Part shown: positions 25,290-26,318 of the stretch, piece by piece
How positions within the stretch are numbered: position 1 is the first letter of the stretch
How the letters are laid out: every line of letters begins with the position of its first letter
Virus record (IMG/VR): IMGVR_UViG_3300044984_002785
Reading direction: 5' to 3' (one strand)
Length of the DNA stretch: 64,000 bases
Source of the DNA: a virus
Taxonomy: Duplodnaviria; Heunggongvirae; Uroviricota; Caudoviricetes; Demerecviridae
Program-made: the position numbers and the translations under genes
The notes under the pieces: model-generated
Databases searched by the model: none
What the model saw: the letters and a program-made list of their open reading frames with translations, nothing else
Told to the model about the DNA's origin: nothing

Positions 25290-25717
25290 ATAAGTAGTAT
25301 GTTAAGATATGGTTGTATGAAGCCGATAGAAAAATGTTCTGGACGCGGGTTCGACTCCCGCCAGGTCCACCAGGAAGTGTATTGTGTGTTTAGGAGTGGG
25401 GGATACGAACCACGTTAAATAAATAAGTCTACAAAAGCCTAGACACAAGCGCAACAGTACACTTCCTAATGGGCCTGCCATGGTTTCGACAGGGTAGTGA
25501 GTACAAGAGTGGACAACTAGGTAAAGCAGAAGCCTTAGGACTGGGGTTGCCTGGTCGCAGAAGCAAAACAAAAATAACTGCAAACGATCAAACGTACGCA
25601 TTAGCAGCTTAATTGCCGCTTAGGGTTTCGCCAGTTCCTCGTAACAGAATACTGGCACTAAATTTTAGCATATTGCGTCACACTTAATCAGAGTTGACGA
25701 CTCTGAGTTTGCTAAAA
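25290..25717 (+). ncRNA. ssrA: circularly permuted (two-piece) tmRNA gene, tag peptide ANDQTYALAA
   Basis: Acceptor piece end 25341-25372 GGACGCGGG-TTCGACT-CCCGCC + CAGGTCC-A-CCA (near-identical to E. coli tmRNA 3' end). Coding piece starts 25471 GGGCCTG (pairs CAGGTCC) + CCATGGTTTCGACAGGG. Tag ORF 25580-25612 GCA AAC GAT CAA ACG TAC GCA TTA GCA GCT TAA. Spacer 25373-25470 closed by GGAAGTGTA/TACACTTCC stem. Confidence 0.8.
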
Positions 25718-25721
25718 TTTA

Positions 25722-26318
25722 TTGAAGGAATTTATGACAAAAACAAGTATTCTAGACCCTAAGCTGTTTCAAACAGACAAGTATTCAAATAACTTCACAA
25801 AATCAGTTGCACACATTCATGAATTTTATCTAACTGGTGAAATTGGTGATGCTGAAGAATACATTGAGTGGTTTGATATTATCCGTAATGCCAGTGCAGT
25901 AGACAGTATTCGCATTTACATTAACAGTCCGGGTGGTGATCTTTTTACTACCTTACAGTTTTTACGTGTTATGTCAGATACTGAAGCCACAGTAACTACT
26001 AGTGTTGAAGGCGCTTGTATGAGTGCTGCAACCATGATCTTTTTACATGGTCATACACAAGAAGTAACCCCCCACAGCCTGTTCATGTTTCACGACTATT
26101 CGTCTGGTACATTTGGTAAAGGCGGTGAACAATATGACCAGATTCAGTTTGAGCGTGGTTGGTCTCGTAAGTTTTTAACAGAAGTCTACACAGGTTTCTT
26201 AACTGATGCCGAAATTGAGTCAATGATGCACAACAAAGACATTTGGATGGACTCAGAAGAAGTTGTTAAGCGTTTAACCGTATTACATAAGGCTCGCGAA
26301 GCCGAAGCCAAAGAATAA
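25722..26318 (+). CDS. ClpP-family (S14) serine protease-like protein
   Basis: YINSPGGDLF, GACMSAATMIF (Ser context), SLFMFHDY (His context) in ClpP order; AAGGA RBS 25711; begins 5 nt after the tmRNA locus. Confidence 0.5.
   Translation: MKEFMTKTSILDPKLFQTDKYSNNFTKSVAHIHEFYLTGEIGDAEEYIEWFDIIRNASAVDSIRIYINSPGGDLFTTLQFLRVMSDTEATVTTSVEGACMSAATMIFLHGHTQEVTPHSLFMFHDYSSGTFGKGGEQYDQIQFERGWSRKFLTEVYTGFLTDAEIESMMHNKDIWMDSEEVVKRLTVLHKAREAEAKE

Follow-up and report, generated by a model that had tools for sequence, protein, structure and literature searches.

Adjacency of a permuted tmRNA gene and a ClpP-family peptidase gene in the tRNA island of a T5-like phage

In the virus record IMGVR_UViG_3300044984_002785 (Demerecviridae), of which a stretch of 64,000 nucleotides was analysed here (the window), a permuted gene for transfer-messenger RNA (tmRNA) lies directly upstream of, and on the same strand as, a gene for a ClpP-family serine peptidase. 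ARAGORN, two Rfam models and the Pfam CLP_protease profile all support this arrangement, which had been proposed in an original prediction made from the DNA alone. On balance we favour a reading in which the two genes belong to one T5-like tRNA-island transcription unit, tmRNA first and peptidase second, with host-dependent co-expression and a probable pathway-level link between their products. The pairing joins phage genes that are each of a known kind; the arrangement is new and apparently undescribed, as no account of a tmRNA-ClpP-like operon or linkage was found in the literature searched.

In the mechanism we propose, a single transcript would carry the permuted tmRNA gene followed by the T5-type early peptidase gene. 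Host SmpB, AlaRS and EF-Tu would serve the phage tmRNA in freeing ribosomes stalled on broken mRNAs during infection. None of the approximately 70 open reading frames (ORFs) of the window matched SmpB, a ClpX/ClpA-type AAA+ protein, SspB or ClpS in Pfam and PHROG scans, which covered the 64-kb window; given that SmpB is missing from the window the phage tmRNA would need that of its host, and a host unfoldase is a possible partner for the peptidase. Truncated products would be marked with (A)ANDQTYALAA, a degron expected to be recognised by host ClpXP, ClpAP and SspB. Less certainly, the peptidase expressed with the tmRNA may be an accessory proteostasis enzyme, within that pathway or parallel to it; tagged fragments, peptides or specific host proteins are among the substrates that it might clear. 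An autonomous tag-and-degrade machine, which is what the original prediction put forward, is not supported, given a window without SmpB, unfoldase or adaptor and a polar docking pocket on the peptidase. Looser functional coupling between the tmRNA and the ClpP-like peptidase is plausible.

The tmRNA gene and its junction with the peptidase gene

Judged from its sequence the tmRNA is genuine, with all the features of a working tmRNA present. ARAGORN places a permuted tmRNA at 25280-25703 (+ strand) with the tag ANDQTYALAA* at 25580-25612, and two Rfam models exceed their gathering thresholds, namely RF04321 tmRNA_permuted (25311-25612, 108.4 bits against 47) and RF01850 beta_tmRNA (25262-25680, 99.6 bits against 84). 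The order is permuted, with the acceptor piece followed by a spacer hairpin and then the coding piece. The features of the region are:

25201-25313, + strand: long hairpin I2, directly 5' of the tmRNA (22-nt arms at 25201-25222 and 25292-25313, 95% complementary, 69 nt between)
25311-25372, + strand: tmRNA acceptor piece, comprising the P2 3' strand, T-arm, 3' acceptor strand and encoded CCA (RF04321 alignment start; CCACCA ends at 25372; ARAGORN tmRNA*)
25373-25470, + strand: spacer between the tmRNA pieces (hairpin I4, 25362-25385 / 25454-25477, prolongs the acceptor stem)
25471-25656, + strand: tmRNA coding piece (ARAGORN tag, Rfam alignments, alignment of 23 viral homologues, fold)
25656-25724, + strand: hairpin I12, between the tmRNA and the ribosome-binding site of the ClpP-like gene (arms 25656-25670 / 25710-25724; repeat search, fold, relatives)
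25724-25736, + strand: ribosome-binding site (RBS) GAAGGA at 25724-25729 and ATG at 25734-25736 (sequence, predicted fold)
25734-26318, + strand: ClpP-family serine peptidase of 194 aa, T5-type early 'Clp protease' family (Pfam PF00574, PHROG 1827, triad columns)

The coding piece consists of the 5' acceptor strand GGGCCUG (25471-25477), the tag frame and a conserved post-tag hairpin (25630-25656), and the spacer is expected to be cut out of the tmRNA precursor. The acceptor stem, GGGCCUG / CAGGUCC-A-CCA, includes a G3:U70 pair, the alanine identity pair of the tRNA-like domain; compensatory acceptor-stem changes occur among the 23 homologues, with G3:U70 preserved. The tag frame runs from resume codon to stop as GCA AAC GAU ... 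GCU UAA and ends in ALAA, as noted at the outset; in the relatives the tag positions AND and [YF]A[LI][AV]A are preserved. When the alanine carried by the tmRNA is included, the full tag is AANDQTYALAA, which differs at two positions from AANDENYALAA of E. coli. Both the ND..Y residues and the final ALAA of the E. coli degron, which are the SspB and ClpX/ClpA determinants in that system, are retained, and tagged products should therefore enter the host proteases.

Between the tag stop and the ATG of the peptidase gene lie 121 nt, occupied by two conserved hairpins. The 3' arm of I12 ends at 25724 and so touches the RBS, while the predicted fold leaves both RBS and AUG unpaired. A gap of about 5 nt, as originally given, is thus essentially right for the structured RNA, whose hairpin reaches 25724, whereas the ARAGORN and Rfam ends lie 19-54 nt upstream of 25722. 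In relatives I12 has arms of 17-22 bp and energies of -19 to -27.6 kcal/mol, and the arms co-vary: each of 13 distinct loci (13/13) has 15-18 of its 18 arm positions paired despite differing sequence. Three loci (L005, L013 and L016) have no I12, and the interval from tag stop to ATG is there reduced to 60-71 nt, equivalent to the post-tag hairpin plus the RBS. This leaves no room for a separate promoter and makes co-transcription likely. In locus L173 the I12-equivalent hairpin stands ahead of an additional gene described below.

Consensus scans of the interval separating the tmRNA from the ClpP-like gene yielded neither a promoter-like nor a terminator-like site, and the most economical reading is that the two would be co-transcribed and then processed. 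There may be an internal promoter ahead of the ClpP-like gene. One candidate, TGCTAAAAT before the RBS, was considered as an extended -10 promoter and set aside because it is the 3' arm of the co-varying hairpin; it is also disfavoured by a similar sequence ahead of the tmRNA, which would start transcription inside the tmRNA.

I12 and I2 are members of a family of hairpins (I1, I2, I3, I6, I7, I8 and I12) spread through the island at 12475-12587, 12762-12871, 15182-15301, 21956-22047, 22773-22876, 25201-25313 and 25656-25724, with 15-24-nt arms that lie 39-76 nt apart and resemble CCATATTTAAGCAT/ATGCTTAAATATGG. These two members flank the tmRNA, and the start of the acceptor piece falls within the 3' arm of I2. 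L008 and L012 carry, in the loop of their tmRNA-to-ClpP-like hairpin, a sequence of about 70 nt that occurs in the window in the loop of the upstream flanking hairpin. The island hairpins may represent RNA-processing punctuation or mobile recombination elements.

Two kinds of variation were seen among the tmRNAs of relatives. In L050 a 183-aa ORF with an HNH motif (CPNCHRLEH; 3167-3718) lies within the spacer of the permuted tmRNA, which still scores 72.3 bits in Rfam across the insertion; it looks like a homing endonuclease residing in the segment that would be excised. Five further tmRNAs (L010, L011, L012, L014 and L022) have a non-canonical T-loop, GCGGG-GGCAGUG-CCCGC in place of GGGUUCGACUCCC, together with a matching D-loop-like change in the coding piece, where CACAG-GAUCGACC replaces CAUGG-UUUCGACA. 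Two tmRNAs of this subgroup were missed by ARAGORN.

Recurrence of the pairing among phages

The pairing was surveyed from both of its sides. Starting from the protein, 49 viral loci (L003-L051) were sampled. In lineage A, comprising 24 tRNA-island loci (L003-L025 and L050; 66-94% protein identity), the permuted tmRNA ends just upstream of the ClpP-like gene in 24/24, as called by ARAGORN for most and by Rfam for L010, L020, L022, L050 and the cut L017. Adjacency is therefore found in 24/25 tRNA-island relatives, with L026 (64% identity) the exception, and the junction is constant in lineage A while flanking tRNAs and ORFs vary between loci. In lineage B (L044, L045, L046, L048 and L049; 53-54% identity) the tmRNA lies 2.7-3 kb upstream with no tRNAs nearby; the upstream sequence of L047 was too short to score for a tmRNA.

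Starting from the tmRNA, viral contigs were scanned for the tag ANDxx[YF]AL[AV]A, which gave 120 loci, 63 of them with ARAGORN-called permuted tmRNAs. In this unbiased sample a same-strand ClpP-like ORF lies within 3 kb downstream in 8 of the 37 permuted tmRNAs that have at least 3 kb of downstream sequence. Nine same-strand downstream hits were found in total, 1.1-2.5 kb from the tag, with none upstream or on the opposite strand; for upstream ORFs the count is 0/34 among permuted tmRNAs with a comparable upstream flank. Most of the downstream hits belong to lineage D, which consists of T4-like contigs of up to 171 kb carrying a gp32-type single-stranded-DNA-binding protein and a gp59-like protein. 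The ClpP-like protein of lineage D is of a different subfamily, with 26-30% identity to that of the window, and follows in the order tmRNA, outer-membrane-protein-like (OMP-like) gene, GroES co-chaperonin, further genes, cell-wall hydrolase, ClpP-like gene. The co-chaperonin (L124 2842-3153 and its lineage D equivalents) is of GroES type (PHROG 3188, 1.9e-18), and its position between the tmRNA and the ClpP-like gene gives the cluster a protein-quality-control character.

The linkage is directional, recurrent and far above a rough chance expectation, given that only 3.4% of phage records match the ClpP-like protein at all, yet it is facultative. Its occurrences are not fully independent replicates, because the same OMP-like gene, encoding a predicted beta-barrel protein with a signal peptide, stands right after the tmRNA in both T5-like and T4-like loci (L173 9436-9996, L080 6870-7442, L124 2421-2885). 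This gene forms a cluster of 8 loci across the two kinds of contig, has no PHROG match and suggests that a tmRNA-containing cassette moves between phage types.

An alternative that we consider credible, although unlikely, is a shared neighbourhood without functional coupling. The peptidase would then be an ancestral T5-type early gene unrelated to trans-translation, to which the tmRNA was brought with the tRNAs of a hyperplastic island; adjacency within the clade would reflect common descent, and proximity in T4-like phages either the piling up of accessory early genes or one moving cassette. Several observations fit this explanation and weigh against a single coupled unit. The ClpP-like family is widespread without a tmRNA, as it occurs in about 1,700 phage records that mostly lack one (T5, ICP1, rV5-like), including the early region of T5 itself. 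The majority of viral permuted tmRNAs likewise have no ClpP-like neighbour, with 29 of the 37 sampled loci (about 78%) lacking a nearby gene of this kind. Uncoupled cases include L026, which has the peptidase and no tmRNA within 4 kb; the tRNA-rich L062, which has 7.3 kb of downstream sequence and no ClpP-like gene; and group C (L027-L043, L051 and L348; 55-69% identity), which has no tmRNA within 3-4 kb, or within 3 kb upstream of the ClpP-like gene in the case of L348. In L173 (metagenome-assembled genome GCA_020047555.1) the tmRNA and the ClpP-like gene are separated by the inserted 186-aa OMP-like gene. Hairpin I12 is a generic island element, one of a general intergenic family and not specific to the pair, and the pocket by which ClpP docks its unfoldases is not conserved (see below). 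The OMP-like gene common to T5-like and T4-like loci suggests cassette transfer over independent convergence, and a single mobile cassette may be common to lineages A, B and D. Finally, co-transcription and any substrate link are themselves inferred.

Speaking against an uncoupled neighbourhood, the junction is kept in 24/25 loci while its flanks vary, and the asymmetry is strict, with nine ClpP-like genes downstream on the same strand and none upstream or opposite. Two ClpP-like subfamilies that are only 26% identical hold the downstream position in different phage classes. As a rough estimate, the 3 kb that follow a random phage position would be expected to contain a ClpP-family gene in well under 1% of cases.

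Our preferred reading of a host-dependent transcription unit can be extended, at considerable risk, to a proposed proteostasis module, recurrent and co-transcribed, that would unite phage tmRNAs with standalone ClpP-like peptidases; in it the peptidase would act on trans-translation products unfoldase-free or via a non-canonical partner interface. This we regard as speculative and rather improbable. If true, it would provide the first functional assignment for the widespread T5-type early 'Clp protease' family, with T4-like phages adding GroES-like co-chaperonins to the module. Well over a thousand phage genomes (T5, BF23, ICP1 and rV5-like among them) carry a T5-type early Clp-like protease, and a conserved, probably co-transcribed pairing that recurs in unrelated phage backbones offers a concrete lead: a phage may both rescue ribosomes and deal with the resulting tagged fragments as it takes over the cell. 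Were the coupling only regulatory, the locus would still illustrate how a phage tRNA island can combine non-coding RNA genes with protein genes in a single processed transcript.

The peptidase and its possible partners

The peptidase ORF ends at 26318 and starts at TTG 25722 or, more likely, at ATG 25734. The original extent of 25722-26318 therefore stands at its end and as a possible start, while the spacing from GAAGGA and metagenomic gene calls, which use the 194-aa ATG form for 99%-identical proteins (P0001), favour the ATG. The gene does possess its own RBS, with AAAGGAAC..ATG preserved among relatives, and the motifs INSPGG, GACMSAAT and FMFHDY are all found in the ORF as first reported. 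Pfam assigns it to CLP_protease PF00574 (46.6 bits, cut-off 20.2). PHROG 1827 'ATP-dependent protease' is its top PHROG match (2.1e-59, residues 24-197 aligned to profile positions 16-189 of 202), with head-maturation PHROGs at 1.8e-28 or weaker. In the profile comparison, suggested originally as a means of separating ClpP from prohead proteases, the PHROG evidence favours the 'ATP-dependent protease' family over the head-maturation families. All NCBIfam models fall under their cut-offs, including TIGR00493 (21.8 against 308.6), NF001368 (35.7 against 249) and Clp_rel_HeadMat NF045542 (68.9 bits against 120), and as a group the ClpP equivalog models score 21-36 bits against cut-offs of 249-361.

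Its profile matches equate the ORF with the early 'Clp protease' of T5 and BF23, to which no function is assigned (BF23 ORF45; PMC10644984). The family is present in about 1,740 phage records by tblastn, equal to 3.4%, including T5, ICP1, rV5-like, PAK_P1-like and XacN1. The T5 orthologue, 'putative Clp protease' (AAX11975; 21075-21674), sits in the early region beside dnk with no adjoining tmRNA. An AlphaFold2 monomer built from 43 close homologues was poor (pLDDT 70.8), with Foldseek matches to ClpP and SppA at a TM score of about 0.4, and was used for fold class alone, never at residue level.

The catalytic triad is predicted at Ser97 (26022-26024), His120 (26091-26093) and Asp169 (26238-26240), which align with S97, H122 and D171 of E. 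coli ClpP, the reference for which was checked against 1TYF (100% over 193 aa). Residues were mapped by ungapped HMMER alignments and a nine-sequence MAFFT alignment. Ser97 and His120 are invariant across the eight phage family members aligned, and Asp169 is present in all bar T5, which has Asn at the Asp171-equivalent column. The alignment of the E. coli and window proteins is below 20% identity, ungapped and anchored from INSPGG through Ser97, with INSPGG, G93, S97 and H120 as anchors. An hhalign comparison of the family profile (Neff 1.4) with E. coli ClpP was discarded, as it mis-gapped the active-site region.

In E. coli ClpP the pocket for the IGF/IGL loop of the unfoldase is formed by L23, L48, F49, A52, Y60, Y62, F82, I90, M92, F112, L114 and L189 (10.1101/820209). 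The equivalents in the window are V25, I50, R51, N52, R60, Y62, D82, S90, E92, E110 and T112, of which only V25, I50 and Y62 are hydrophobic and the others mostly polar or charged. No residue aligns with L189, and there is no C-terminal strand that matches the L189/R192 region. The window's pocket residues are invariant or nearly so inside the close family. So polar and charged a pocket renders canonical docking of host ClpX/ClpA doubtful, and the ClpP-like protein probably does not dock these unfoldases canonically.

This bears directly on the dedicated unit envisaged in the original prediction, in which the phage protein replaces or supplements host ClpP, docks host ClpX/ClpA and degrades phage-tagged proteins. 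The E. coli-like ND..Y and ALAA-COOH of the tag, an intact triad, a length and numbering that match E. coli ClpP, the presence of the handle region, probable co-transcription and the conserved linkage are all compatible with such a unit, and Bacillus megaphage G does encode tmRNA, ClpP and ClpX, though non-adjacent (PMC12484599). Against these stand a window without ClpX/ClpA, SspB, ClpS or SmpB, residues R51, N52, R60, D82, S90, E92, E110 and T112 at the pocket positions, the missing C-terminal strand and scores far under the cut-offs of the NCBIfam ClpP models. We consider a dedicated unit of this kind quite improbable.

The ClpP-like protein is also, from its matches and genomic position, not the prohead protease. 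As originally observed the gene lies outside any capsid module, and T5's portal, prohead protease and major capsid protein (MCP) are all without homologues in the window. Among environmental T5-like capsid modules with enough flank, 16/16 have TerL, portal, HK97-type prohead protease and MCP, and no ClpP-like gene; a TerL probe from T5 alone reached only close T5 relatives, and two alignment-based probes led to one contig of the clade. A direct comparison is provided by the 61-kb contig IMGVR_UViG_3300022747_000019, which contains both L013, where the tmRNA is directly upstream of a ClpP-like gene 81% identical to that of the window, and L294. Its TerL (6980-8281) and portal (9424-10632) genes are followed by a 660-aa ORF (L294 10648-12630) in which an HK97-type protease domain, 44% identical to that of T5 (E=4e-44), is joined to the MCP; some 30 kb separate this ORF from the ClpP-like gene. 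BF23 likewise has an early Clp protease distinct from its prohead protease (PMC10644984). Since the L013 contig has a separate HK97-type protease, the notion that the ClpP-like protein matures the capsid with an incidental tmRNA neighbour is effectively refuted, notwithstanding its secondary matches to head-maturation PHROGs, weaker than that to the non-structural PHROG 1827, and to Clp_rel_HeadMat, which is under its cut-off, and the low level of the BF23 orthologue in purified virions (PMC10644984). The finding originally named as refuting the pairing, a capsid maturation protease flanked by capsid genes, was thus not obtained.

As a separate observation on the capsid module, the prohead protease and MCP of T5 are two genes, compared with the single ORF in L294.

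The surrounding island and related systems

PHROG and Pfam scans of the window's ORFs identify a genome of the T5-like type, represented by its early and replication region. The gene set includes thymidylate synthase, phosphoesterases, a split NAD-dependent ligase, a DnaB-like helicase, primase, PolA-type polymerase, a further helicase, SbcCD, flap endonuclease, ribonucleotide reductase and PhoH, with a long tail fibre at the window's right end. The PolA has at most 49% identity to the polymerases of Vibrio T5-like phages, and a megablast of the locus against 50,697 phage records returned zero matches; there is therefore no close cultured relative among them. Naming a host was set aside, since the sole distant match, L348 (group C-type, 62% identity, on a contig binned with an uncultured Polynucleobacter metagenome-assembled genome), is too weak.

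Across the whole window ARAGORN finds 24 tRNA genes and the one permuted tmRNA, all on the + strand, between 11.6 and 28.8 kb. One further element follows the peptidase gene:

26438-26525, + strand: tRNA-like element with a long variable arm, just 3' of the ClpP-like gene (Rfam tRNA-Sec model, 35.2 bits against gathering 47)

The anticodon loop of this sub-threshold element, CUUGAAA, suggests Ser(UGA), and it may be a tRNA-Ser(UGA) missed by ARAGORN. L173 has a tRNA-like match at the equivalent position (11099-11184). Two of the ARAGORN calls are unusually long, a tRNA-Ile(UAU) of 92 nt at 15305-15396, which begins 4 nt past the 3' arm of hairpin I1, and a tRNA-Tyr of 93 nt at 22190-22282.

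Further along the window, an SPFH/Band 7 protein (31623-32423; Pfam 1.2e-17) is encoded 5.3 kb past the ClpP-like gene, a spacing that is roughly kept in L173. NfeD-SPFH pairs are known from prokaryotes. An SPFH/NfeD-type pairing with the ClpP-like gene was considered and dropped, on account of the separation of about 5 kb and an NfeD1b_N match of 16.4 bits against a cut-off of 40. Ahead of the PhoH gene, small Gly-/Gln-rich proteins are encoded in a run (51522-54241), one of them with a collagen-like (GPP)n repeat (52498-52950) and several with fibre-like C-terminal domains, for which the sole Pfam hint is a weak T4 gp9/10-like match.

Compared with bacterial trans-translation (E. coli ssrA, SmpB, SspB/ClpXP, ClpAP, Lon), the window's system shares the tRNA-like domain with G3:U70, the resume codon, the tag ORF and a Ser-His-Asp peptidase of the ClpP family, here encoded alongside the tmRNA. 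It differs in being phage-encoded and two-piece, with no SmpB, unfoldase or adaptor nearby, and its peptidase differs from E. coli ClpP in failing the equivalog models and in lacking the hydrophobic IGF/IGL pocket.

Knowledge of phage tmRNAs goes back to Bxz1-type mycobacteriophages and phage G (PMC4131195), and huge phages encode tmRNA together with SmpB (PMC7162821). The closest counterparts of the window's tmRNA are the two-piece tmRNAs of aquatic phages such as OM43 phage Melnitz and pelagiphage HTVC008M (PMC9004378), the latter the top tmRNA match. They are alike in their permuted tmRNA, their lytic aquatic-type phages and their early-expressed region; the window's differs in its setting within a T5-like tRNA island and in having no glutamine riboswitch, with no glnA-type element as in Melnitz found by Rfam at E<=0.1. 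The T4-like loci of our survey, with gp32 and gp59 neighbours, probably belong to the Melnitz/HTVC008M group. Buchholz et al. 2022 (PMC9004378) reported 53 two-piece tmRNAs in isolate genomes and speculated that a phage might tag proteins for degradation; reasons for tmRNAs in lytic phages are given there as hypotheses only, with Clp or any protease not mentioned.

The peptidase finds its nearest counterpart in the T5/BF23 early 'Clp protease', with which it shares PHROG 1827, a standalone form of about 200 aa, a location in the early region and separateness from an HK97-type prohead protease. The T5 protein is about 30% identical, has dnk upstream instead of a tmRNA and carries Asn at the Asp171 column. 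Phage head-maturation proteases (NF045542; PHROGs 94, 1684 and 133) have the same ClpP/S14-type fold class with catalytic Ser and His, whereas the window's protein is under the cut-off of their model, has no scaffold or capsid fusion, does not lie beside portal and MCP genes and belongs to a clade with a separate HK97-type prohead protease. Bacillus megaphage G (PMC12484599) similarly combines a tmRNA and Clp components in one phage genome. There tmRNA, ClpP and ClpX are far apart, whereas the window, in which no unfoldase was found, has tmRNA and peptidase genes side by side.

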